Of a stretch of DNA of 35,340 nt, positions 3,059 to 18,745 are shown one piece after another. A program made the translations under genes and the position numbers. The stretch covers positions 1 to 35,340 of the forward strand of contig CAYPMQ010000001.1 of the NCBI GenBank assembly GCA_964411625.1, read 5' to 3'. The stretch comes from an uncultured Ignavibacteriaceae bacterium. GTDB lineage: Bacteria; Bacteroidota; Ignavibacteria; Ignavibacteriales; Ignavibacteriaceae. Each line of letters opens with the position of its first letter. The first letter of the stretch is position 1. Below the pieces are notes generated by a model, which saw only the letters and a program-made list of their open reading frames with translations, was not told the origin of the DNA and ran no database searches.

Positions 3059-4363
3059 TTACTTCATTAATACCATTTTATTGACTAATCTGATATTATT
3101 TGATCTTAATTCATAAATGTATGTACCTGAAGCCAGCTTGCCAGCATCAAAGTTGAATTCATAGTTGCCGGGGTTCATGTTTTCACTTACCAGTGTGGCA
3201 ACTTCGCTTCCTAACATGTCATAAACCTTTAAGGTTGTGAATCCGGCAGCCGGAATAGCAAACTTAATTGAGGTTGTGGGGTTGAATGGGTTAGGATAGT
3301 TCTGTGATAAAGCATAGTCTGTTGCAACGCCGGGTTCTTCTTTAACTGATGAAGGATTCGGGTTGATGGCTTTCTGAAGAGCCGGGAATCCTGAGCCGCC
3401 GAATACGCAGACATAAGCGGTATCGCCTGAAGGTGTGAATTCAATACCTCTGGGTCTCTGAGCGAGGGAGTCAGCACCCGGAACATAAGCCCATTTAAGA
3501 CTGTCAGTTAAATCACCGGTTGCAGTATTCCATGCATACCATGTTGCTACATCATAGTAGGTTGTAACACCGGGGTATCTGTTCGGTTTATCATTGGTTG
3601 AACCTGATGATAACCATAATCTGCCGTATTTTCTGTTCCAGGCAAATGATTCTGAATCAAAACCTTTTGCAACTGTATCCTGAAGTGTGAAAGGCGAGAA
3701 TTCATCAGGTCTGTTGTATTTCAGAACGCAATGGTTTGTGTAACCTGCCCAGTAAATTGTATTCCCGTCTGCGCTAACTTCAAATGCTCTTGAGAAACCG
3801 ACAGTTGAATCAAGGGCATTACCTAAAACGTTGAACTGAGCATCATAAATTTTCAGGGGTTTGCCTGTGCCGGGAACAACATGTGCTGTAAACATATTGA
3901 GGTTATCATCAACTGCAACTGCCGTTAATGACTGACCTACCGTCGGCTGTACTTTTGCAATACCTGCGCCGGTTTTGTAATCAATTTTGTAAACAGCGTC
4001 ATAGTATGAAGCATAGATGTTGCCGTCTTTATCGCTTCTCAATCCACGGCCGGCATTTTTCAGTGTATCAGGAACGCCGCCAACTGTAACAATCTTGATT
4101 GGTGAAAAAGGTGCCTGTGTTCCGTCGCCGTTAAATACATAAAGAGGTTTTACAAATACTGTACCGTTGGGAGTAACAATACTGTCAACGTTATAAAACG
4201 GCTGAACCCATACTCTTCCGTAAAGGTCAACTGCCACACCATGAAGGTCTCTTTTTGACTTGAATGATGTGTCAGGGAACGCACCAAGATTGGTCCATCC
4301 CTGTGAATATGCTACGGAGCCGATAAAAAGCACAAATAAAAGCGCCGTAAAGAATCTTTTCAT
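3059..4363 (-). CDS. T9SS-sorted secreted beta-propeller protein (NHL/SMP-30-like repeats)
   Basis: Signal peptide MKRFFTALLFVLFIGSVAYSQ. Repeated propeller-like blades are visible (DGNIYASYYDAVYKID, ADGNTIYWAGYT). The C-terminal ~85 aa (NYPNPFNPTTSIKF...GTYIYELRSNNIRLVNKMVLMK) is a classic T9SS type-A sorting domain. An AGGAG RBS precedes the start. Confidence 0.8.
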   Translation of the reverse strand: MKRFFTALLFVLFIGSVAYSQGWTNLGAFPDTSFKSKRDLHGVAVDLYGRVWVQPFYNVDSIVTPNGTVFVKPLYVFNGDGTQAPFSPIKIVTVGGVPDTLKNAGRGLRSDKDGNIYASYYDAVYKIDYKTGAGIAKVQPTVGQSLTAVAVDDNLNMFTAHVVPGTGKPLKIYDAQFNVLGNALDSTVGFSRAFEVSADGNTIYWAGYTNHCVLKYNRPDEFSPFTLQDTVAKGFDSESFAWNRKYGRLWLSSGSTNDKPNRYPGVTTYYDVATWYAWNTATGDLTDSLKWAYVPGADSLAQRPRGIEFTPSGDTAYVCVFGGSGFPALQKAINPNPSSVKEEPGVATDYALSQNYPNPFNPTTSIKFAIPAAGFTTLKVYDMLGSEVATLVSENMNPGNYEFNFDAGKLASGTYIYELRSNNIRLVNKMVLMK

Positions 4364-4466: not shown

Positions 4467-5729
4467 TCACATATTTCTGCCCGGTGAAGGTGCTCCCTGT
4501 TTGAGAACCCTGATCATCAGGACTGTCTGTGGAATTACAGTTGTACCGCTCACCCCGGCTTCACGGGTATAGTAGAGATTGGTTCCGTTATCCCACGCAA
4601 AGTAGATAGCAGGGTAACTTGCCAGTACTCCGGGATAAAAGGCGCTGACCGCACCAACCGGTGATACCTGAACAATGGGGTCAGTTCTGTCTGTGCCAAC
4701 ATAAACAACACCATCAGCATCAACTGCCAAGGCATTAACTTTAATATTGTATCCGTAGGTTTGTGTAAGATCAGCAAAAAGTGTCTGATTAATCAGATCA
4801 TTGTTTGCATCAATATCAAATGAATAAACATACGCACTTGAATCCTGCTGAACAGCGGCATAAAGTTTATTTCCGGCAACTTTGAGTGCTTTTACGTTGA
4901 AAGCAAACGGATAAGTCTTCACTGATTTATCTGAAATTTTTACTCTGTAGAGTGCAGCATTATCACCGCCAAGCCACAGATGCGCGTTGGCATCTATATC
5001 CATATCTTTAAGTTTAACTGTATTAGGGGTAAGAGCCAGGAAGGTGCTTGATGATCCGCCGCCTGCAGGAATTTCAAATATGGCTCTCTGGAAGTTTCTG
5101 ATTCCGTACATTTTACCGCCCGGACCAAATTTCAGCGAGGTGTATCTTAAGCCGCCGCCTGCATCGGGAGTATATTTTGTTCTTACTCCTGCGGGGGTTA
5201 CTTTAACAATATTATTTGTTATCTGATTTGAAAGCAGCGAGATATACAGGTTGCCGTCTTTATCGAATTCAAGTGCCGAAGGCTCCTCAAATTCCTGAAG
5301 TGCAACAGGGGTTATTACAGCCTGCTGTAATCTGTACTTTGTGGTGTCACTGAATTCAATTGCGCCTGAAATTCTAATAAATACTCCGGCGGTATCATTT
5401 GCCAGATCAACCACTGCAGCCCTGACTTTTATCTCAGTGGCTGTTGATGATAATACGGTTCCCGGTTTTCCATTGAAGTATACAAATACTTCAGCAGGAT
5501 TTGCCGAAAAATTTGTACCTGTGATTGTCAGCTCGGTCACACCGGCTATACCTCCCCCGGCGGGAGAGATTGACGTGATGGTCGGTTTTGGTTTGAAGGT
5601 TACACCGGGATCATACAAGCTTTTTACTGACTCTTCACAACCGGTAAATGTAATAAGCGGTAACAGCAGTAATACTGCAAGAATTGCTGCCTGAACCGGC
5701 TTCATATAATTTTTTAAACGTTCTCTCAT
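4467..5729 (-). CDS. Lipoprotein with an IPT/TIG domain followed by a beta-propeller
   Basis: Lipobox ITFTGC follows a hydrophobic leader. An IPT/TIG-like segment follows (ITSISPAGGGIAGVTELTITGTNFSANPAEVFVYFNGKPGTVLSSTATEIKVRA). After that come NHL-like repeats (DGNLYISL, DGVVYVGTD). Confidence 0.7.
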   Translation of the reverse strand: MRERLKNYMKPVQAAILAVLLLLPLITFTGCEESVKSLYDPGVTFKPKPTITSISPAGGGIAGVTELTITGTNFSANPAEVFVYFNGKPGTVLSSTATEIKVRAAVVDLANDTAGVFIRISGAIEFSDTTKYRLQQAVITPVALQEFEEPSALEFDKDGNLYISLLSNQITNNIVKVTPAGVRTKYTPDAGGGLRYTSLKFGPGGKMYGIRNFQRAIFEIPAGGGSSSTFLALTPNTVKLKDMDIDANAHLWLGGDNAALYRVKISDKSVKTYPFAFNVKALKVAGNKLYAAVQQDSSAYVYSFDIDANNDLINQTLFADLTQTYGYNIKVNALAVDADGVVYVGTDRTDPIVQVSPVGAVSAFYPGVLASYPAIYFAWDNGTNLYYTREAGVSGTTVIPQTVLMIRVLKQGAPSPGRNM

Positions 5730-5753: not shown

Positions 5754-6782
5754 TTAATAAATGAATTTAACGCTTAGGTTATGAACATTATTGAATATAC
5801 CGAACGGTATATACGCATAATCCACTGCAAGATTAAATCCGAATTTTGAGGTATTAAGACCAACACCCATTGTCACATTTCTTTCATCATTGGGGAATGA
5901 ATATCCGCCTCTCAGAGAGAAAGTTTTCATAAAAGTGTATTCTCCGCCTATAAATACCTGCTCAGGATAATCTCTCGGGTGAGATGCATCAACCGAAACG
6001 AGGAATGTATGTTCTTCTTTATTAATTTCAACAAAATCAAGCACATCCATGGATAAACCGATTTTGAAGAGCAGCGGGAGCTGGAATCCTGCTTCCTTGT
6101 ATTTAAGCTCGGTCGAAAAATTTCTTACAGACATACCGAAGTTCAGGCTCTTGAATCCTGTTTTGTAGAGAATTCCAAAATCGAATGCGATTGCATTCAG
6201 AGCATTCTCTTCAGTAATCAGATTTCCTGAGCTGTCTATATCAACAACGCTCTGACCAAGATTCTGTCTTACTAATTTAACGTTTGCACCGAGTGAAAAT
6301 TTGTCTGAAAGTGCATTTGCATATCCGATACCGAATGAAAAAGCAGTCGGCTTGAACATATCAACGTCACGATAACCGCTCGGGCTTGAGCCGTCAACTA
6401 TCGTTCCCTGAAGTTCGCCGTAATCAACGTTCACTACAGTGATTCCGAATTTGCCGAAAACACTGCCAAACGGTTCAAACGCCGCAGATCCGTACAAATA
6501 ATTAATATCGGCAATCCATTTATTTACACCGAATGAAACATCCCACATGCTTGTGGAAAATGCCATTGTTGCCGGGTTATAAAATAATGCACCCGAATTG
6601 CCGGTCAGTGAGGTGAATGATTCACCCATAGCGGCAGCCCTTGCATCAGTTGGCACAGACAGAAATTTGAAACCGGTCTGAGCTAATTTTTCTCTTTGTG
6701 CATTCGTAACGGGTGTTGCAAGCATCACCAGCAAGATGGCAAAAAACAGTTTATATATTACTCTTTTCATTTTAATTCCCAT
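5754..6782 (-). CDS. PorV/PorQ-family outer-membrane beta-barrel protein
   Basis: Signal peptide, then the family-typical N-terminal motif GFKFLSVPTDARAAAMGESFTS...ALFYNPATMAF. Alternating beta-strand pattern throughout, with an aromatic C-terminus (...SVKFIY). The start could instead be the second ATG at 6770 (MKRVIYKLFF). Confidence 0.7.
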   Translation of the reverse strand: MGIKMKRVIYKLFFAILLVMLATPVTNAQREKLAQTGFKFLSVPTDARAAAMGESFTSLTGNSGALFYNPATMAFSTSMWDVSFGVNKWIADINYLYGSAAFEPFGSVFGKFGITVVNVDYGELQGTIVDGSSPSGYRDVDMFKPTAFSFGIGYANALSDKFSLGANVKLVRQNLGQSVVDIDSSGNLITEENALNAIAFDFGILYKTGFKSLNFGMSVRNFSTELKYKEAGFQLPLLFKIGLSMDVLDFVEINKEEHTFLVSVDASHPRDYPEQVFIGGEYTFMKTFSLRGGYSFPNDERNVTMGVGLNTSKFGFNLAVDYAYIPFGIFNNVHNLSVKFIY

Positions 6783-6791
6783 CTCTCTTGA

Positions 6792-8624
6792 TTAGCGAAT
6801 GATTACGAATTTAACAATATGCTTTTCACCGGTTTTGGTATCTTCAATAACTGCTATATAGATACCACTGACAACTATCTGCCCCGAGGATGTAACCTGA
6901 TTCCGGAATTCGTCCCCGCTTCCGTCGGTATGCTCAATTGTCTTTATCAATTCACCCATCTCGGTGTAGATCTTGATTGTGCACTCTCCGGGGATATCGT
7001 AGAATGCAATTCTGTCACCTGCACTGCCGCCCGGGAATCTGACTTTATCAGGTGATGCGGCAGAGTTGTACGGGTTGGGAACAACTCTGATCTGGCTGAG
7101 GCTCGTTCCTGCCTGTCTCTTAAGATTTGCAGGATCGTATGTCTGGGTCCAGTATCTGCTTGAGGATGTGTTTCTGTTTTTATCAACAGCAACTACGTAA
7201 TAGTAATAGTCAAATCCTCTTGAGAGGGAGAAATCATCATATCTTGTAACATCTGCAGTTACTTCAGCTATCTGATAGTAAGTGCTGTCTACATTACCGA
7301 GGGCTCTGTAAACCTGAAAATGTGTCGGAGGATTAGGATCATCGGCATATTTAGTCCAGCTTAAAGTTACACGGTCACCGCCTGATTTGACATCAAATGT
7401 TGCCGGCGGTCTCGGTGGTTCAAGTACGGGAGCCCAGTTAGCATCAAATCCTGCCTTGATCTTGTTAAAGGTAGCCATAAGAGAATCTTTGCCTTTAAGG
7501 AATTCTAGGTTCTTCTGTATTGCTGTAATCTGTCCGGCTTTGAACTGACGTCCTACAACAACACCTCTTTCATAACCGATACCTGCAGCGGCTTCAGCCC
7601 AGACAATTCTGATGCTGTCACCGGGAGCCAGAGTGTATGGTCCGTAACCGTTGTTGAATGAGTGTCCGCCTGTTCCGCCAAGTGCCGGGTCACCGGTCTG
7701 CTCTTCAAACTTACCGTTTGACTGAACTCTGTAAGCGTGTCTTTGTCCGTGTCCTTTAGTGATGAAATCAAATTCAGCCTGCATTCTTGTAACGTTGAAA
7801 GCGTTATTTCCAGCCAGGTACGGAGGAGAATCTGAATCCTGAGTATCTGTGGTTGAAGGCTGTGCAGGATCATCTGATTTATCTGTGGCTGATTTATCTG
7901 CGTGCAGAGTAACCATACCGACAAACTGCCATGCACCAAGTCTTCCTATGGTGTCATTCGGGGAAAGATATCTTGCAGCGGTTGAATTTCTTTCGAAAAT
8001 CGGGCCGCCGATATTGTCATAAGCAACGGTTTTTTCAGGTGAATAACCATGCCAGGAGAACTGAGCTCTTAAACCATTCGGGTTATCGGGATCATTGATG
8101 ATTCCGTCACCGCGGGCGTCACTCATTGTATTTTTACCCCAGCCGGTTGAGTTTGCAATAACATAACGTGTCTGTTTGTTAATTGCAAGCCTGTTGGTGA
8201 AGTAAAAATAAACGTCTGTTAATGTGTTGTTCGGTAATTCTATATCGTCATCGGCATCTGTGTTGCCGGTGTTTTTATAGGTGTATTCGTGAACAATAAA
8301 GTTATCATAAGCTGGATTACTGAACTGGTAAATCTTTCTTGTGAAAGTGATACCGAGCTGGGTGTTAACCGTGTTCACGATCTGACGATCCCACTTCATT
8401 GTGGGGTCAACTTTATCAAGAGCAACATCCTTCTGATATGAAGGATTACCATCAACTGAAGTTACCGGCGGGTCAAATTTTCCTGTCATTTCAAATTTGA
8501 CAGGATACGCAGCCCAGAACTGAGGATTACGCGGACCCATTGTCACTACTTTTACGGGATAAAAGGTTCCCGTCTCATCAGTAAAGTTTTTAGCACCTAT
8601 CCAGTGGCCTTTTGCAGCCTGCAT
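6792..8624 (-). CDS. Secreted Fn3-domain protein with a T9SS-like/FlgD-Ig-like C-terminal domain. This is the long 3' part of a gene interrupted by an in-frame TAG
   Basis: The 610-aa ORF has no signal peptide of its own. It contains an Fn3-like segment (PPATFDVKSGGDRVTLSWTKYADDP...YYYYVVAVD). Its C-terminus (IAFYDIPGECTIKIYTEMGELIKTIEH...SGIYIAVIED...KFVIIR) resembles T9SS sorting domains. It is in frame with the upstream signal-peptide fragment at 8712-8849. Confidence 0.7.
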   Translation of the reverse strand: MQAAKGHWIGAKNFTDETGTFYPVKVVTMGPRNPQFWAAYPVKFEMTGKFDPPVTSVDGNPSYQKDVALDKVDPTMKWDRQIVNTVNTQLGITFTRKIYQFSNPAYDNFIVHEYTYKNTGNTDADDDIELPNNTLTDVYFYFTNRLAINKQTRYVIANSTGWGKNTMSDARGDGIINDPDNPNGLRAQFSWHGYSPEKTVAYDNIGGPIFERNSTAARYLSPNDTIGRLGAWQFVGMVTLHADKSATDKSDDPAQPSTTDTQDSDSPPYLAGNNAFNVTRMQAEFDFITKGHGQRHAYRVQSNGKFEEQTGDPALGGTGGHSFNNGYGPYTLAPGDSIRIVWAEAAAGIGYERGVVVGRQFKAGQITAIQKNLEFLKGKDSLMATFNKIKAGFDANWAPVLEPPRPPATFDVKSGGDRVTLSWTKYADDPNPPTHFQVYRALGNVDSTYYQIAEVTADVTRYDDFSLSRGFDYYYYVVAVDKNRNTSSSRYWTQTYDPANLKRQAGTSLSQIRVVPNPYNSAASPDKVRFPGGSAGDRIAFYDIPGECTIKIYTEMGELIKTIEHTDGSGDEFRNQVTSSGQIVVSGIYIAVIEDTKTGEKHIVKFVIIR

Positions 8625-8875: not shown

Positions 8876-11800
8876 TTACTGTAATTCAAACGAGAATCTT
8901 AAACCCCAGTAAATATCTCTTGGGCTTAAAAATGCAGTATAACCTAAGTTTGGCATATCAATATATGATTTGTTTCTTCTCCACTCGGCTTTCTGCTCTT
9001 CGCTCGCATTTTCATCCCAGGGAATATAAGGACCGGTTCTGATATCTCCGGGTTTATCGTCGCCGGTGATATTTCCGTAACCGAATTTATTAAATTCTGA
9101 AGGTAAATGAAGCGATTTCATATATGCATCGTAGTCTCTTGAATCAACAAAGCCGGCTCTGTAATCCAGATATTTGATATTAAAGACGTTATAGACGTCC
9201 ATAAAGAATTCAAAATTTGCCGGGCCCACTTTGAATGATTTTGATAATCTTATGTCTACGTTGAAGAAATCAGACCACTGGATATTATTCTGATATCCTG
9301 GTGCTGTTCCTCCGGGACCTGTCCATGAAAAGTAATCACCTGCACTCCATGTGGCCAGAACGTTAAGTCTGATATCTTCCAGTAAAGCATAATTGCCCAC
9401 TTTAGGACCAAATCCCTTAGGAGTGAAGAAGTCAACGTTTGCTCTTGCATACGGCTGAGGAACGGGTTTGGTCTGCTCAAATAATGCAGTGTTTCTTTCC
9501 TGTTCTCTCTGGAGAGCAGGGTTCTCATAATATCTCGGAAGCCCGAAATATCCGAAAGAAGTAACCATATAGGTGTAATTGATAAAACCGGTTACCCAGT
9601 CGCCTCTGCTCTTTGTAAAAGTGATTTCAAACCCTCTGATATCTCTGTAGAGATTAGGTTCCGGTCTGAGATAGTCAACTGAATTGTCACGGTTTGTGTA
9701 CTGTACCAGTCTTGTTTCGTTTGTAATGTCTTTGTAATATCCTGCAATCCTTACAAGGTACATATCCGCGAGGTTATGTTCGTATCCAAGCTCGTATGCA
9801 ACTGTTTTGGGGAGTGGATTATTGGGATCTGCTATGCGCACGATCTGATTGTTAACCTGACTTCTTCTTAAAAGGAATAACTGTTCAGGTGTTGGCATTG
9901 ATCTGAAATGACCATAGTTGAAGTAAAGTTTACTGTTAACTGTGATCGGGAATGCAACGCCGAGTCTCGGGCTGAGATCAATGAGTTTTTCAGTGGCCTC
10001 TTTAGCAAGCAGCTGGTCGATTTTAAGTGAGTTCGCTCCTGAAAATGCCTTGTTGTAAGGATCATAAACATACCATTCACTGTTTGCATCAGAATAATCA
10101 ACTCTTAAACCCAGGTTGGCTATCATACCTTCAAACTCAAGCTTTGCCTGTCCGTAGAGGGCTCCCCTCATCGGGAATGTATGCCATACTGACCAAGTGT
10201 TGCTGGTTGGGAGTGAAGGTTCAACAAGTGCGTAATTAACGTTATTGTCTGTATAGATGACTTCAAAGCCTGCTTTGATACCGAGGTATTTATTAAGCTG
10301 GCTTGTGTAGTCAAATCTTCCTGAATATGTGGCAACTTTTGAACTGTCCCTTGAGTTTGAGAAACCGAGACCCATGTTCATGGCTGAGCCGACACCGCTT
10401 GAGAATCCTGAATAGTAACCGTAAGGCGATTCATCAAAGAAGTTGTTTCCGAATTTATAAATTTTTGAAGTGTTTCTTGCCGCGCCCGGATTGGTGCTGT
10501 ATTCAGAACCAACCATGTTCAGCTGAATTTCATAGAATGTTGCCGGTGAAAGAACGTGTGTGAACTTTGCGCCGAACATTCTTCTGTCAATTGAGCTGGG
10601 TGCCCAGTAATCTGTTGAAAATAATCTCGCATCTGTAAAGTTTGCACCTGATCTTATGTCAACGTTTGATGCAATTCCTGAAGCTGATCTGAAAAGACCG
10701 GGCCCGCCTGCACGGCTTGAGTTTGTACCGGTCTGTTTACCCATAAGACCTTCAACCGTAAATTTCATTCCTGTTGCAATATCGCTTGTGAGTTTTACGT
10801 GACCGCTCCACTCTCTGTAAGCATCATCTGAGAGGGGGAAAAGATACACATCTCTCACCTGTCTGTATGATGCAAGGAATCTGAGGTCACCAAGCTGTTT
10901 GCTGATTCCCGGCACAGGTCCGCTGATGCTCATATCCATGTCATAATCCGAGAGTTTAATTCCGGTTTCACGTCTGTGCTGCCATAAGAATAGCTGCTGT
11001 GCGGCTTCGGGGGTGAGGTCATTTGTTGGATCTGCGTCTGAAAGAGACTGCTCTGAAATCTTGTTCCACCCTACAAATTCCTGATATTGCGCCTGAGTGA
11101 ATGCATCCCATGCGCCGCTCTTTGTTCCTGTCCAGGCAACTGCGGGATCCACATAAGGTCTTATCCAGTATGAATTAAAATCGTTAGGACTGTCTCCGAA
11201 ATTTTTTGGGGCTGCTGGTCTAAGTCTTCCCAGAAATGAAATGGTGTACTTATCTCTTTTACCTTCAGAGGTAACCACGTTGATAAGACCTGAACGTATA
11301 TTTCCGTACTCGGCGTTGAAACCGCCTGTCTGAATCTGGATTTCTTCAACCGATGTAAACGAGATACCCGTGTAAGGTGTGTTGTCTCTTTCATCCCTAA
11401 AGGTGATACCATTAATCATAAATGCAGTCTGGTCGCTTCCGCCGCCTCTTACCGAGAGATCCTGAACGCCGGCCTGCAAACCTACAACCGCGGTAACGCT
11501 TACCACGGGCAGGTTCTGAACAGCTTCGATATTCAGGTTAACTGTACTGGCAGAAACGTCTTTCTGCACAATAGGCTGTTCAGCAACAACCACTACTTCC
11601 TGAGTCGTAAAAGTTTCGTCCTGAAGTGTGAATTCCAGTTCCGTTGTCTGGTTTATATTAACTCTTACTTCCTTTATAACTTTAGGAGCATAGCCGATAA
11701 ATGATGCCTTAACGGAGTATGTGCCCGGCGGAACGTTGAGGATAACGTAATATCCCTCAAGATCAGCTGCTGCTCCAAGAGATGTACCCTCAATGAGGAT

Positions 11801-11929
11801 ATTTGTTCCCGGCAGTGGTTCTCCCGTCTTTGCATCTATTACCATTCCGGCTATTTTACCGGTCTGTGCAAAGGAATATGAAGCTAATAAAACAAACAAT
11901 AGGAAAAATTTTGTATAACTATACCTCAT
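8876..11929 (-). CDS. TonB-dependent outer-membrane receptor with an N-terminal carboxypeptidase-regulatory-like domain (SusC-like architecture)
   Basis: Signal peptide, then a CarboxypepD_reg-like segment (GKIAGMVIDAKTGEPLPGTNILIEGTSLGAAADLEGYYVILNVPPGTYSVKASFIGY). Plug motifs follow (VRGGGSDQTAFMINGI, EEIQIQTGGFNAEYGN), then an ~800-aa beta-barrel. An AGGAG RBS precedes the start. Confidence 0.9.
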   Translation of the reverse strand: MRYSYTKFFLLFVLLASYSFAQTGKIAGMVIDAKTGEPLPGTNILIEGTSLGAAADLEGYYVILNVPPGTYSVKASFIGYAPKVIKEVRVNINQTTELEFTLQDETFTTQEVVVVAEQPIVQKDVSASTVNLNIEAVQNLPVVSVTAVVGLQAGVQDLSVRGGGSDQTAFMINGITFRDERDNTPYTGISFTSVEEIQIQTGGFNAEYGNIRSGLINVVTSEGKRDKYTISFLGRLRPAAPKNFGDSPNDFNSYWIRPYVDPAVAWTGTKSGAWDAFTQAQYQEFVGWNKISEQSLSDADPTNDLTPEAAQQLFLWQHRRETGIKLSDYDMDMSISGPVPGISKQLGDLRFLASYRQVRDVYLFPLSDDAYREWSGHVKLTSDIATGMKFTVEGLMGKQTGTNSSRAGGPGLFRSASGIASNVDIRSGANFTDARLFSTDYWAPSSIDRRMFGAKFTHVLSPATFYEIQLNMVGSEYSTNPGAARNTSKIYKFGNNFFDESPYGYYSGFSSGVGSAMNMGLGFSNSRDSSKVATYSGRFDYTSQLNKYLGIKAGFEVIYTDNNVNYALVEPSLPTSNTWSVWHTFPMRGALYGQAKLEFEGMIANLGLRVDYSDANSEWYVYDPYNKAFSGANSLKIDQLLAKEATEKLIDLSPRLGVAFPITVNSKLYFNYGHFRSMPTPEQLFLLRRSQVNNQIVRIADPNNPLPKTVAYELGYEHNLADMYLVRIAGYYKDITNETRLVQYTNRDNSVDYLRPEPNLYRDIRGFEITFTKSRGDWVTGFINYTYMVTSFGYFGLPRYYENPALQREQERNTALFEQTKPVPQPYARANVDFFTPKGFGPKVGNYALLEDIRLNVLATWSAGDYFSWTGPGGTAPGYQNNIQWSDFFNVDIRLSKSFKVGPANFEFFMDVYNVFNIKYLDYRAGFVDSRDYDAYMKSLHLPSEFNKFGYGNITGDDKPGDIRTGPYIPWDENASEEQKAEWRRNKSYIDMPNLGYTAFLSPRDIYWGLRFSFELQ

Positions 11930-14987: not shown

Positions 14988-15281
14988 TTAATAGGGCTTT
15001 CCATTTAATAAAATACACAGGGGAAATTTAATAAAAATTTATCCTCCTTCTCCATTTTTATAATCTTTTTAAAATATATCCTTTCATATGTAATTTTTTT
15101 TATTTATTTTTAATTTCAAACTATTACTTTTTGTTAAAGTTTTTAATCATTAATGATCAACAGGGTTTAAGCGGCTCCTCACCGTCATTCAACGCTGAAC
15201 TCCTATCTGAACTGCAAATATAACCGGGCAGAGATATTTTACCCGGAACGATTGAATTAATAAAAATTGCAAAGGTGATTA

Positions 15282-16304
15282 ATGAAGTCATATTTATTTC
15301 CGAGTGTTCTTGAAAAACACGGCGAGGAATTAAAAAATGTTTTTGATGAATTAATCAAGGGCATGAAAATTTATCATGATGATGAAGCCTATCTTGTTGG
15401 GGATATAGCACTTGTTGAGGGTACTTCTCCTCACAGAGTTGTCAATAGTTCTCCGCTCGAGAGTGATTACAGAATACTTTCAAAGGCTGCTGTCTTACTT
15501 GCATCCTCTCAGATTAATAAACCGCTGAATATAACAGTCGGTTTTCCTTACAGTACCTACAATGCCAACCGCGGACTTGCTGTGGATTTTTTCAAAGGAA
15601 GACACGATATCTATTATGATTTATTTGCCTTTGAAAAAAACTTTACAAAAAAAGTTGAAGTTGAAATTGAATCAGTTGATGTGATTCCGGAAATCCTGGG
15701 ATGCAGTTTTGCCGTCAGGAATCACTTTAACAGTCCGGATAACTGTTTCGTAGTTAATCTCGGTTACGGTACATTTGAAGCATGTCTTACTAATAATTAT
15801 GGTCTCGTTGACAGAACGGTTATTTCAACCAATGGAATTAAATATGCCGTTGAAGACTGCATGAAGGAGCTGAACAAGAAATACTATCTCGGCCTGCGCA
15901 CTTCACATAAATTTGATACTTATTTCCAGCGCGGCTCAATAATGGTCAACAGAAGGCACCTTGATTTTTCCGAAATCAAGATGGATTCACTTAAGAAATA
16001 TTACAATGAAGTGATTTCACCCGCAATAAGAAATACATGGACTGATGATGATTTTGACCGTACACGCAAGCTGTATCTGGCCGGCGGAGGATCAAACTTC
16101 CAGGAAATAGTAAAATTTTTCCAGGAAGAATTCAACGGAATTCTCGATGTTGAAGTTATTCCTGAACCTCACCTTTCTGTCTCAAAAGGGTACTATCTGA
16201 GATCACTGAAATTAACTAATGATAAAGAAACTGCCGTTGGCATTGACATAGGAAATGCACAAACAGTTGTCACCTATGGTTTACCGCATTACATGCAAAT
16301 GTAA
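15282..16304 (+). CDS. ParM/StbA-like actin-fold ATPase (bacterial actin-like protein) with the phosphate-1 motif at the C-terminus
   Basis: 340 aa. It aligns by eye along ParM-R1. FPSVL corresponds to ISPNSF, AYLVGDIA to the subdomain IB hairpin, ITVGFPYSTY to VCTLPLTEY, and VDVIPEILG to VKVMPESIP. The phosphate-2 motif is FVVNLGYGTFE (aa 156-166), the adenosine motif is LYLAGGGSNF (aa 264-273) and connect-2 is VSKGYY. The phosphate-1-like AVGIDIGNAQTVVTYG occurs at aa 318-333. A TGA at 15276-15278 blocks any N-terminal extension, and an AAGGTGA RBS precedes the start. Confidence 0.7.
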   Translation: MKSYLFPSVLEKHGEELKNVFDELIKGMKIYHDDEAYLVGDIALVEGTSPHRVVNSSPLESDYRILSKAAVLLASSQINKPLNITVGFPYSTYNANRGLAVDFFKGRHDIYYDLFAFEKNFTKKVEVEIESVDVIPEILGCSFAVRNHFNSPDNCFVVNLGYGTFEACLTNNYGLVDRTVISTNGIKYAVEDCMKELNKKYYLGLRTSHKFDTYFQRGSIMVNRRHLDFSEIKMDSLKKYYNEVISPAIRNTWTDDDFDRTRKLYLAGGGSNFQEIVKFFQEEFNGILDVEVIPEPHLSVSKGYYLRSLKLTNDKETAVGIDIGNAQTVVTYGLPHYMQM

Positions 16305-16363: not shown

Positions 16364-16954
16364 ATGATGTTTGTTAAGGATAAAGAGAAAGTCAGGAAAC
16401 CAGGACAAAGCGAGTCTGAAATAACCTACATTAACGATGAAGTTCAGATTATCGGTTGTTTTGCAGTACCTCACAATCTCGTCCTTTTAGGTAATATAAA
16501 AGGGGATGTTGTTGTTAAAGGTGATCTTATTATTGGCAAATCTGCTGCAATAATCGGAAATGTTTACTGCAAATCCGCCACCATAGACGGAATCTTAAAC
16601 GGTAATATCACTTGTGAGAAAAAGCTGACTGTAAATGAAGGCGGTCAGATTCTTGGTGATATCACTGCTGAAGATTTCCTGAGTTACGGCAAAGTTAACA
16701 TTGCCGGCAAGATAAATATCAGCAACAACGGTACATACATATCAGAAAACTATGAAAATCTGGTTTCAAAAATGCTTAATGATGCTAAATCAGGTAAAAG
16801 TGAAAACAGGAAATCCGGCGCTGATGAAAAGAATTTCGCTTACGAATCACATAACCTAAATAATGGCAGTTCAGTATTTTATGCTTCGGAAATTCCTGCA
16901 TCCTCTGCCGACGGGAATTCAGCTGATGCCCGGAAATCCAATCCCTGGGCCTGA
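16364..16954 (+). CDS. Bactofilin (polymer-forming cytoskeletal protein, DUF583/CcmA family)
   Basis: 196 aa. The core shows the repetitive beta-helix pattern of bactofilins (LGNIKGDVVVKGDLIIGKSAAIIGNVYCKSATIDGILNGNITCEKKLTVNEGGQILGDITA). It is flanked by low-complexity, probably disordered N- and C-terminal tails. It starts 59 nt downstream of the actin-like gene on the same strand. Confidence 0.85.
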   Translation: MMFVKDKEKVRKPGQSESEITYINDEVQIIGCFAVPHNLVLLGNIKGDVVVKGDLIIGKSAAIIGNVYCKSATIDGILNGNITCEKKLTVNEGGQILGDITAEDFLSYGKVNIAGKINISNNGTYISENYENLVSKMLNDAKSGKSENRKSGADEKNFAYESHNLNNGSSVFYASEIPASSADGNSADARKSNPWA

Positions 16955-16992: not shown

Positions 16993-17247
16993 TTATGGAA
17001 CAGGATCATATCCGCTGCCTCCCCAAGGGTGGCAGCGTGATATGCGCTTAATTCCAAGCCAGCCCCCCTTAAGGATTCCATACTTTTTCATTGCTTCAAT
17101 AGAATAATGTGAACATGTAGGAGTATAACGGCATGAGGGTGGAAACAACGGTGAAATAAATATTTGATACATTCTGATCAACATGATCAGAGGAACAGCA
17201 AGCAGCTTCATCAGTCTGATAAAAAACTTCATATTACCCGCCGGCAC
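16993..17247 (-). CDS. yidD: Membrane protein insertion efficiency factor YidD
   Basis: Signature [49 protein letters not shown]. Confidence 0.9.
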
Positions 17248-17268: not shown

Positions 17269-17757
17269 TTAATCATTTCCGTCTTCTTCGTGATCTGCCT
17301 GCTCAAGGAGAAAATCTGTTATCGCCATTATATCAAAGCCTTTATTATCAGGATCATTTATCACCTCAAAATAAACTTCATAATGCCGGTAAACCTCGGT
17401 TTTTTCTCGTACAAGTATATCCGGAAGGCTTGTCATCATTTCATCCCTCTCAGATGGCAGCTTACTATTGACTGCGTCAATAATCAGCAGTTTCTGGTTA
17501 TAAGTAAGTACTGCAGATCCGGTCAACATGTGAAGAAAATAATCACGAAGTTCATTATCATGTGTCATTATTACAGAAAAAACAATGCTGCTGTAAGAAT
17601 CTTCATCGCAGAGAAGGTCTTCAATTGATACTGAATCCCGGATAGAAATCTGCCCATAAGTCTTTTCATTCGCATCACCTTTCTCTTTCCAGTCGCGATG
17701 ATGGAGCCAGGGAATGAAATCAGGTTCAGGAATTTTCGTTTTATATCGTTCCATCAC
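17269..17757 (-). CDS. Hypothetical acidic cytoplasmic protein, no recognisable domain
   Basis: 162-aa ORF packed between the CDF gene (12-nt gap) and yidD (21-nt gap). Its composition is protein-like with an acidic tail (EQADHEEDGND). The overlapping plus-strand ORF 17164..17628 looks like junk by comparison. Confidence 0.5.
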   Translation of the reverse strand: MMERYKTKIPEPDFIPWLHHRDWKEKGDANEKTYGQISIRDSVSIEDLLCDEDSYSSIVFSVIMTHDNELRDYFLHMLTGSAVLTYNQKLLIIDAVNSKLPSERDEMMTSLPDILVREKTEVYRHYEVYFEVINDPDNKGFDIMAITDFLLEQADHEEDGND

Positions 17758-17769
17758 AATCTGTCGCTT

Positions 17770-18745
17770 TTAATATTTAACCATTTTTAGCGGAAGAGGT
17801 TCCCTTAGTTCCTTTTTCTCACAAATAACGGGTTCAAATGGCTCAATATGCACCAGAACATCACTTATAGAGGGCTTCCCCTCTCTTATTTTATCTTTGA
17901 TGGCATGAGCTATATCATGTCCGGCACGCACTGATATTCCACCGTCAACAATTGCATGCAAATCAACAAAATATTCAAAACCCATTTTGCGTACAAAGCA
18001 TTTTTCTATATCTATAACAGCTTTAACTTTTTTTTGCGAGCTGTCTTACCTCTTCATGAACGGAATCAGGCGGAGCGGTATCAAGTACTTCTCTGAAGGC
18101 GGGCATAAAAAGAGATACAGCATTGTAAAGTATTATTGCCGAAGCAAACAGGGCAGCATAATCATCTGCTTCTTCATACCCCTCACCGCCGATAAGGGCA
18201 ATCGAAATACCGATAAAAGCTGCAGCAGATGTGATTGCATCGCTTCTGTGATGCCATGCATCGTTTGTTACCGCCGTGCTTTCAAGATATTTCCCCACAA
18301 CTATTATTTTTCTGAAAAGTAATTCTTTTACTGCCACAACCACCACAAGAACAAAAAGTGTGAAGGGAGCGGGAGCATAATGAGGCGTAAGAATCTCCCT
18401 TATACTCTGGATCACGATCAGAATACCTGCTCCCGCGAGCATAAGACCTACAAACATCCCCGCAAGCGGTCCGGCTTTTCCGTGCCCGTAAGGATGGGTC
18501 TTATCTCTTGGCTTTGAGGCAAACTTAATCCCCGCCGGTACAATTACTGATGTAAAGATATCCGGGAGTGACTCTATTGCATCAGCAATTAGGGCATAAG
18601 AATTTCCGGGTACGCCGACTGCACCTTTTATCAGTACAAGAAAAAAAGATACAATTATTCCTGCGAGTGTGGTTTTTAAGCCTTCAACGGATTTTTTCTT
18701 TAATAGAGGAAAATCAACAACGGATGCAGAAGTGTTGAATGACAT
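17770..18745 (-). pseudogene. Cation diffusion facilitator (CDF) family metal efflux transporter, split by a +1 frameshift in an A8 homopolymer
   Basis: ORF 18023..18745 encodes the transmembrane domain (HPYGHGK, DAWHHRSD). ORF 17770..17985 encodes the cytoplasmic dimerisation domain (FVDLHAIVDGGISVRAGHDIAHAIKDKI...VLVHIEP). Removing one A from the run at 18028-18035 joins them as ...EEVRQLAKKVKAVIDIEKCFVRKMGFEYFVDLH.... Confidence 0.8.

Follow-up and report, generated by a model that had tools for sequence, protein, structure and literature searches.

A ParM/Alp-type actin-like protein with a C-terminal phosphate-1 hairpin, encoded beside a bactofilin in Ignavibacteriaceae and other Bacteroidota

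Background

To our knowledge, every characterised actin-fold polymer -- actin, MreB, ParM, FtsA, MamK, crenactin and the actin-like proteins (Alps) -- keeps its phosphate-1 motif at the N-terminus, and in the established topology of the fold the sheet of subdomain IA has the strand order β3-β2-β1-β4-β5. MreB, which acts in cell-wall synthesis, has the canonical strand order, and in FtsA, where subdomain 1C replaces 1B, the phosphate-1 hairpin stays N-terminal. The C-terminus of ParR binds ParM, and the C-terminal peptide of FtsZ docks on FtsA. Here we describe a gene on a 35,340-nucleotide (nt) stretch of DNA from an uncultured Ignavibacteriaceae bacterium (positions 1 to 35,340 of contig CAYPMQ010000001.1, assembly GCA_964411625.1; the whole stretch is referred to as the window) whose product appears to be an actin-like protein of the ParM/Alp type with the phosphate-1 hairpin at its C-terminus, and which is followed directly by a gene for a bactofilin.

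The C-terminal tails of bactofilins are usually poorly conserved, an exception being that of BacP, which binds PadC (PMC12448750). Full-text searches of 8 million papers and preprints gave no account of an actin-like protein that is circularly permuted, nor of an operon that pairs an actin-like gene with one for a bactofilin.

Gene structure and motif order

The gene is an ATG-initiated open reading frame (ORF) of 340 amino acids (aa) at 15282-16304 on the forward strand, the strand on which all of the motifs described below also lie; its assignment as the coding sequence of a circularly permuted ParM/Alp-type actin-fold protein, whose strength is discussed below, draws on Pfam, AlphaFold2 (AF2) and Foldseek. 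The motifs that had been described in an earlier interpretation made without database searches (here called the sequence-only reading) were all found where it had placed them. Just ahead of the start lies a Shine-Dalgarno-like AAGGTGA, read from the sequence at 15272-15278 on the forward strand. It includes an in-frame TGA (15276-15278) two codons (6 nt) before the ATG, which can be read directly in the DNA, as the sequence-only reading had done, and which makes an N-terminal in-frame extension of the ORF impossible.

The N-terminus of the protein reads MKSYLFPSVLEK. Its residues 2-12 (KSYLFPSVLEK, 15285-15317) correspond to strand β3 of subdomain IA by hhalign and by DSSP, in agreement with the earlier proposal that the ORF opens at the β3 equivalent, with its FPSV motif. 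There follow an IPE motif with E137 (15684-15692), which is invariant in 120 aligned sequences and aligns to IPQP of canonical proteins; then, in the order previously described, the phosphate-2 motif CFVVNLGYGTFE (residues 155-166, 15744-15779), supported by conservation and HMMER and having Asn159 at the position of the usual Asp; and the adenosine motif LYLAGGGSNF (residues 264-273, 16071-16100), which aligns to the adenosine motif of Hsp70 and MreB. Residues 296-312 (16167-16217) form the helix with which the canonical fold closes; it contains the connect-2 motif VSKGYY at 300-305 and, by the AF2 model and by comparison with relatives, marks the ancestral C-terminus. By alignment and AF2, a linker, NDKET (residues 313-317, 16218-16232), then joins this ancestral C-terminus to the ancestral N-terminus: residues 318-333, AVGIDIGNAQTVVTYG (16233-16280), form the relocated phosphate-1 β-hairpin, with β1 at 318-323 and β2 at 327-332, as indicated by conservation, AF2, HMMER and hhalign. 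That a phosphate-1-like segment ends 7 residues before the stop, as had been claimed, is plain from the sequence; those residues, LPHYMQM, together with the stop codon (16281-16304), make up a C-terminal tail that varies among homologs, and they place the new C-terminus in the former β2-β3 turn. The motif order is non-canonical in that phosphate-1 comes last, and the canonical order (phosphate-1, connect-1, phosphate-2, adenosine, connect-2) is reached only after in-silico rotation.

The Pfam matches reflect this layout. ALP_N (PF17989) scores 40.9 bits (cut-off 26.3), with residues 2-140 aligned to positions 17-148 of the 148-position profile; nothing at the N-terminus of the protein corresponds to profile positions 1-16, the part of the profile that represents the phosphate-1 hairpin. 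MreB-like_C (PF21522) scores 29.1 bits (cut-off 27.8) over residues 157-273, and MreB_Mbl 13.6 bits, below its cut-off of 27. The NCBI label, from the Prokaryotic Genome Annotation Pipeline (PGAP), is 'ParM/StbA family protein'; no NCBIfam model dedicated to the protein was found, and the best hit, PRK13917 (ParM), scores 30 bits where its cut-off is 417.

Collinearity with canonical relatives

When the family profile was run exhaustively with HMMER against 1.84 billion cluster representatives, three groups could be told apart. Full-length members of the core family score at least 345 bits. A set of divergent permuted proteins (P0177, P0184, P0190, P0194, P0195, P0199, P0202, P0244 and P0247) scores 54-90 bits, with a start near residue 4-9, around [FYI]PS, and with GxDxGN at the end of the chain. 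Canonical relatives score 55-75 bits; in these, profile position 3-6 corresponds to residue 19-29 and the chain ends at about profile position 310. Their N-terminus has the form IGxDxGYGxxK…FPSV (for example MKSNNLGIDLGYGFVKATDGKTDYIFPSVVG), the β1-β2 phosphate-1 hairpin standing directly before the FPSV strand, and they terminate a few residues past the helix equivalent to 296-312.

When the family was compared by hhalign with 15 canonical relatives in its native order, the score was 245.4 over 300 columns, covering template positions 26-338; with the hairpin rotated to the front it was 259.7 over 319 collinear columns, covering positions 9-340. The rotation thus gains 14.3 in score and 19 columns and reaches the N-terminus of the template, placing AVGIDIGNAQTVVTY over the canonical NIGLDLGYGFNKILT. 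The N-terminus of the permuted proteins (FPSV) is aligned to β3 of the canonical relatives ('IVIPSVIGEG') and not to β1-β2, which answers a doubt that the sequence-only reading had itself raised, namely that the first 20 residues might supply the hairpin: they match β3, FPSV lying over IPSV.

Moving the hairpin to the front has a similar effect on the match to ALP_N, which rises from the native 40.9 bits (profile 17-148) to 50.7-53.1 bits and now covers profile positions 1-148, a gain of 9.8-12.2 bits; in the controls, a reversed hairpin in front gives 40.9 bits (16-148) and a shuffled one 41.8 bits (9-148), a gain of 0-0.9. Another family member, P0037, goes from 39.1 to 45.6 bits upon the same rotation. 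The native profile also gives a non-collinear HMMER match to BiP, in which its positions 317-338 fall on the N-terminal residues 24-45 (VVGIDLGTTYSCVGVF), positions 130-179 on residues 191-241 and positions 251-288 on residues 340-379. From these Pfam, hhalign and BiP results, the protein is a circular permutant as the term is defined for sequences; the break falls in the β2-β3 turn, and the old termini are connected by a short linker. We regard it as very probable that this is a circular permutation of the ParM/Alp-type actin fold, the central proposal of the sequence-only reading, which is borne out by the collinear, higher-scoring matches that rotation restores and by the clade-wide occurrence of the arrangement.

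One protein, P0226 (locus L092), was considered as a duplication intermediate, since its own hairpin is N-terminal, as in canonical proteins, and HMMER matched a stretch at its C-terminus, 'KPLNLGNMKFCIA', to the relocated one. It was rejected: the tail lacks GxDxG and is not conserved among the homologs, turning up in a single relative of 77% identity, and the contig is 1.1 kb long with 1.6x coverage. The resemblance of this tail to the hairpin is probably a matter of chance. Since P0226 was the lone candidate intermediate, the origin by duplication, fusion and trimming that had been suggested for the permuted gene is so far without support.

Distribution and conservation of the permuted order

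A search of 5.8 billion proteins yielded 137 relatives. The 120 that are listed come from Ignavibacteria/Melioribacteraceae, Balneolaceae and Bacteroidota; 118 of them are full-length, most are 325-390 aa long, and all have a query coverage of 93-100%. Exactly one GxDxGN is present in every full-length homolog (118/118), near the C-terminus (12-50 residues away) and never at the N-terminus, and the full-length members begin 5-8 residues ahead of the FPS motif; the sole exception to the layout of GxDxGN and FPS is a homolog cut by a contig end. In the 120-sequence alignment, where column identity averages 35%, no sequence departs from G320 or D322, and conservation at G324, N325 and T328 is 90% or higher; few parts of the protein are thus as well conserved as the C-terminal segment. 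Judged by these alignments, the C-terminal GxDxGN motif is far beyond chance.

A relative is present in at least 281 species genomes (one genome was scanned per species), and every match reaches query residue 330-332. Isolates carrying the gene are found in Cyclobacterium xiamenense (CP159481.1, a complete chromosome), Roseivirga, Sphingobacterium and Parapedobacter. The homologs thus collected settle whether the permuted order defines a clade: it does, all 118 full-length proteins sharing it and none having an N-terminal phosphate-1. The permuted order is a clade character, not an artefact, and is judged to be ancient; the chromosomal clade that shares it spans Ignavibacteria, Rhodothermales, Balneolales and Bacteroidota.

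The linker varies across the family both in length and in sequence, from 5 residues here up to about 16 (some 11 extra) in Bacteroidales, and the tail that follows the hairpin can be anything from 6 to about 200 residues long (P0129 is an example). Long extensions are seen at either end: P0016 and P0018 have Lys-rich N-terminal extensions of about 110 aa, and P0129 (about 190 aa) and P0012-P0017 (about 40 aa) have C-terminal extensions rich in Lys/Glu or Gln/Pro. Both of the termini that bear these extensions lie in the former β2-β3 turn; this surface therefore seems to tolerate extra sequence and may serve interactions. A further protein from the search of cluster representatives, P0270 (378 aa), has about 65 residues at its end that correspond to the family C-terminus with the hairpin VGIDIGNSNTV, joined to some 310 acidic residues that are unrelated; the gene is probably a metagenomic chimera or was called wrongly.

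Predicted structure and placement of the hairpin

An AF2 model built with the 120-sequence alignment has a predicted local distance difference test score (pLDDT) of 93.4 and a predicted template modelling score of 0.91. The hairpin is modelled as two strands, 318-323 and 327-332, with a block pLDDT of 94-97, and the linker is likewise confident (pLDDT 97 for block 311-320). In the full model DSSP assigns N-terminal strands at 2-7 and 9-12 and a helix at 296-312. When the protein was truncated to residues 1-313 and modelled with the same alignment, the fold was kept (pLDDT 92.9) and strand 9-12 persisted along with the rest, while residues 2-7 went from strand to coil. Since DSSP strands need backbone bridges, strand 2-7 must be hydrogen-bonded to the C-terminal hairpin in the full model. 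This dependence is good, if indirect, model-based evidence for the expected β3-β2 pairing, with the hairpin predicted to sit in the β1-β2 slot.

The leading Foldseek matches of the model are all ParM/Alp-type filament formers -- Ta0583, pCBH ParM, Dh-cParM1, pSK41 ParM, CorM, Alp12 and Alp7A -- followed by MamK, MreB and Hsp70. The Foldseek probability is 1.0 for Ta0583, the ParMs, Alp12, Alp7A, MamK and MreB, identifying the four-subdomain actin (ASKHA) fold.

Nucleotide-site residues

The phosphate-1 motif of the family is GxDxGN[AS][NQ]T, compared with GxDxGYGxxK in the canonical relatives. That of MreB is GIDLGTANT, and the family motif, GIDIGNA[NQ]T, is nearer to it than to GxDxGYGxxK. 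E137 of the IPE motif, a putative counterpart of the catalytic Glu of ParM, is invariant in the 120 sequences, as are G268, G269 and G303, and G270 is at least 90% conserved.

The phosphate-2 region, which HMMER aligned to that of Hsp70, is where the family departs from its canonical relatives. These keep the Asp (IDxGFxTTD), a residue believed to coordinate Mg via water. At least 90% of the family has xSxGYGTFE here, with Ser at position 159; G161 and G163 are invariant. The Asn at the Asp position to which the sequence-only reading had drawn attention is indeed there (N159), and it is confined to the Ignavibacteria/Melioribacteraceae subclade, Ser being the family consensus. The divergent permuted clades also carry Ser at this point (SLGFGTVE, SIGYGTVE), so that loss of the phosphate-2 Asp travels with the permutation. 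From this pattern of conservation the pocket is judged to be under strong purifying selection and chemically altered.

The bactofilin partner

The gene 60 nt downstream of the actin-like gene, at 16364-16954 on the forward strand, encodes a bactofilin of 196 aa by its Pfam match (PF04519, 64 bits, cut-off 27.9, residues 21-117), with an N-terminus of the MF.K type and a C-terminus ending in ...NPWA. A bactofilin gene is adjacent on the same strand at 80 of 86 loci, across several phyla; it lies mostly 0-190 nt downstream of the permuted actin gene, often 0-14 nt, and apart from it the gene neighbourhood changes from one genome to the next.

The downstream bactofilins share only 21-26% identity among themselves, and nearly all of them end alike. 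Comparison of 75 of these proteins showed Trp within the last two residues in 72 and as the exact terminal residue in 68, the overall frequency of Trp being 0.8%; the endings include ...PRTW, ...GSVAW, ...RFW and ...GWW, the Trp coming after a variable, often acidic tail. Here the motif is NPWA, at 16940-16951 on the forward strand, a candidate docking peptide. From its retention in such divergent sequences, the terminal Trp looks like a conserved short linear docking motif and, by analogy with other partner-binding tails, is a probable docking element for the actin-like protein. An actin-like polymer or switch working with a bactofilin scaffold, with the Trp peptide as the proposed dock, is suggested because the Trp tail is kept here even though bactofilin tails are poorly conserved elsewhere. 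Whether ATP-dependent polymerisation of the actin-like protein is coupled to the bactofilin we regard as an even bet.

Some loci have a three-gene order, in which a short bactofilin (122-135 aa, lacking the terminal Trp) precedes the permuted actin gene and the long, Trp-ending bactofilin follows it. This order is seen in Sphingobacteriales and some Bacteroidales/Cytophagales (L001, where the short gene is at 4574-4954, and L074, L075, L082, L063, L068 and L071). In Maribellus (L005) only an upstream bactofilin, of 195 aa, is present.

Genomic neighbourhood and the divergent permuted proteins

The genes that flank the pair in the window are chromosomal housekeeping genes, among them those for a phosphoribosyltransferase, yidD, dipeptidyl peptidase IV, a TonB-dependent receptor, PorV with a protein sorted by the type IX secretion system, enzyme I of the phosphotransferase system, and an Omp85 protein with a BamB-like neighbour. 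Three reverse-strand genes make up the type IX secretion neighbourhood: 3059-4363 codes for a protein with a Por_Secre_tail sorting domain, 4467-5729 for one with an IPT/TIG domain and 5754-6782 for a PorV homolog; past PorV come an ORF of 610 aa without a Pfam match (6792-8624) and the TonB-dependent receptor (8876-11929). On the other side of the pair are yidD (16993-17247) and a cation-efflux gene (18023-18745), with a 162-aa reverse-strand ORF that has no Pfam match between them (17269-17757). No ParR-like gene was seen beside the actin-like gene among the ORFs of the window, a centromere search upstream found no parC-like iterated array, detecting only a single 2-copy 14-nt repeat, and a scan for promoters and terminators gave nothing informative.

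The genes of the divergent permuted proteins (L087, 4001-5050; L088, 2349-3353; L090, 4001-5071; L086, 230-1258) lie in contexts resembling mobile elements, with polB and a 5'-3' exonuclease, terminase GpA or HNH nearby, and have no bactofilin. Directly downstream of each, in the position of ParR, is a small unannotated ORF of 87-116 aa, that of L086 being cut by the contig end. These contexts suggest segregation functions on mobile elements for the divergent permuted clades. The occurrence of such clades without a bactofilin, in mobile-element contexts, also suggests that the permutation predates the bactofilin partnership.

Alternative explanations

The window comes from a metagenome-assembled genome (of an Ignavibacteriaceae bacterium), and the gene might be thought an artefact of assembly, frameshifting or gene calling, the hairpin of the true protein being N-terminal, as is normal, and the C-terminal motif being part of a neighbour or of a fragment of a duplicate. 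Conservation across genomes already refutes this, the architecture being identical in all 118 full-length homologs and in the 281 or more species genomes, complete isolate chromosomes included; the in-frame stop stands 6 nt upstream and the next gene is a bactofilin rather than a second actin-like copy, and the idea can be set aside for practical purposes. A classical type II (ParMRC-like) DNA segregation system, to which the bactofilin would be a mere neighbour, is what the PGAP name implies, and ParMs are indeed the nearest structural relatives, just as the divergent clades do have a ParR-sized ORF downstream in their mobile-element-like surroundings. The gene in the window, however, is flanked by neither a ParR-like gene nor centromere-like iterated repeats, and its context is chromosomal and varies between genomes apart from the bactofilin, which is present at 80 of 86 loci, often with gaps of 0-14 nt; for this locus a segregation system of that kind is most unlikely.

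Two further alternatives accept the protein as it stands and concern its hairpin. The protein could be an N-terminally truncated pseudo-ATPase that is free of nucleotide, with the C-terminal GxDxGN an unrelated hairpin that binds a partner or the membrane; the loss of the phosphate-2 Asp (to Ser/Asn) in all permuted clades would suit this, as would the low HMMER scores of the hairpin against Hsp70 (about 2 bits) and the confident folding of the model of residues 1-313. Yet the profile gain is specific to the true hairpin, not to its reversed or shuffled versions, and the re-permuted alignment to canonical relatives is collinear from end to end; conservation in the hairpin falls on the positions typical of phosphate-1 (G, D, G), neither the adenosine motif nor Glu137 varies, strand 2-7 is lost from the model when the hairpin is removed, and the established topology would leave a gap in the IA sheet between β3 and β4 if β1-β2 were missing. 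We think this explanation very unlikely. Alternatively the hairpin might complete the ATP site in trans, by a domain swap into subdomain IA of a neighbouring subunit that would couple polymerisation to the nucleotide site. The linker that carries it is flexible and differs in length among homologs (5-16 residues), the core of residues 1-313 is predicted to fold alone, and circular permutants and terminal β-hairpins are in general often elements of domain swapping; but the AF2 monomer docks the hairpin in cis, with high confidence that extends to the linker, and a linker of 5 residues fits the cis arrangement, so the swap is unlikely.

Against the preferred reading, a permutant with its hairpin in its own nucleotide site and a bactofilin as partner, several observations have to be set. 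Profile matches to sequences of the Protein Data Bank (PDB) are weak, the best E being about 1e-3, and re-permutation hardly shifted these scores, though at such near-threshold values a collinear match to CorM (profile 5-167) was obtained only with the re-permuted profile. The position of the hairpin relative to the nucleotide pocket is read from the DSSP changes and from model confidence. Coevolution, examined by mean-field direct coupling analysis of 171 non-redundant sequences (effective number about 100), was underpowered: the best couplings of the hairpin are to the IA helices 61-75 and 296-312, and the strand pairs used as positive controls did not rise above background. At 6 of the 86 loci there is no adjacent bactofilin. 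Finally, to judge from the motif, a site with Ser/Asn in place of the phosphate-2 Asp could be impaired in hydrolysis or even in the binding of Mg-ATP.

Proposed arrangement and function

These points notwithstanding, the whole explanation -- a ParM/Alp-type permutant in which the hairpin completes the IA sheet and which acts as a polymer linked to a bactofilin -- is in our judgement likely. The permuted topology and its conservation are observed, as are the homology of the hairpin to phosphate-1 and the linkage of the two genes. In the scheme that we propose, the canonical chain would have run from β1-β2 (phosphate-1) to β3 (FPSV), through the rest of IA/IB and then IIA/IIB, and back to IA with the last helix. 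The break would have come in the β2-β3 turn, with a linker of 5-16 residues now tying β1-β2 to what had been the C-terminus (helix 296-312). The C-terminal hairpin would then insert between β3 (residues 2-7) and β4 (residues 82-88) to rebuild the five-stranded IA sheet, and the phosphate-1 loop (G320, D322, G324, N325, T328) would complete the nucleotide site together with phosphate-2, GGG268-270 and Glu137.

The chromosomal clade has the gene for this protein in an operon-like pair with that for the bactofilin, and the most likely function of the protein would be that of a nucleotide-dependent actin-like polymer that acts on, or is positioned by, a bactofilin scaffold, with the Trp peptide as docking element by analogy with ParR-ParM, FtsZ-FtsA and BacP-PadC. 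ATP binding and hydrolysis, polymerisation and a physical interaction with the bactofilin are what we infer from this arrangement. An additional, and unlikely, role for the relocated hairpin is that of a detachable strand gating the nucleotide site, such that an ATP pocket forms only upon docking of β1-β2; docking might occur in cis under the control of the bactofilin Trp peptide, or in trans by strand exchange between subunits. If this were the case, nucleotide binding, polymerisation and attachment to the bactofilin would be mechanically coupled, and the result would be a composite actin-bactofilin cytoskeleton specific to the Bacteroidota group, with an assembly switch novel among actins.

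Comparison with known systems

A natural, ancient and widespread permutant of this kind would show that the catalytic core of the actin fold can be re-threaded, and would offer a natural counterpart to engineered permutants for studies of folding and evolution. Its near-obligatory pairing with a Trp-ending bactofilin points to an undescribed two-polymer cytoskeletal module, whose hosts are Bacteroidota from the environment and from gut-associated settings, among them Cyclobacterium, Roseivirga, Sphingobacterium, Odoribacter and Azobacteroides.

Precedents for parts of such a module come from other polymers. FtsA is a precedent both for topological rearrangement in a bacterial actin and for docking of the C-terminal peptide of a second polymer; there, however, it is a whole subdomain that is relocated, and there is no sequence relation beyond the superfamily. 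The BacP-PadC-ParA system of Myxococcus and the BacA-PbpC system of Caulobacter are alike in that a bactofilin polymer recruits a nucleotide-dependent client, in the case of BacP through its C-terminal tail (PMC12448750); the clients there are a ParA-type ATPase or a penicillin-binding protein, whereas here the partner has the actin fold and the tail ends in Trp. MreB is matched weakly, at the adenosine motif.

Closer likenesses are found among the ParM and Alp proteins. The ParM/StbA proteins of R1, pSK41 and pCBH resemble the permuted protein in fold, in size and in having ALP_N and MreB-like_C (Foldseek template modelling (TM) scores of 0.5-0.7), and share with it the FPSV, phosphate-2, GGG and GY motifs. 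It differs from them in its C-terminal phosphate-1, in having Ser/Asn for the phosphate-2 Asp and in lacking ParR and parC, and its gene differs in being chromosomal, vertically conserved and paired with a bactofilin. Dh-cParM1 of Desulfitobacterium hafniense (PDB 8x1i), the best sequence match among solved structures (E about 2e-4 to 9e-4), is also chromosomal, the match being limited to the middle of the protein (chain residues 75-292). The best Foldseek match is Ta0583 of Thermoplasma acidophilum (PDB 2fsj, 2fsk and 2fsn), with an E-value of 1e-15 and TM scores of 0.71 and 0.76 when normalised to query and target, respectively; this protein is archaeal, with no known bactofilin partner, and is presumably an Alp of the GxDxGYG…FPS type with the canonical strand order. 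The labels 'ParM/StbA family' and 'plasmid segregation protein ParM' are probably wrong for the chromosomal clade, and the protein is best described not as a ParM but as one of a permuted lineage that is sister to the GxDxGYG…FPS-type Alps.

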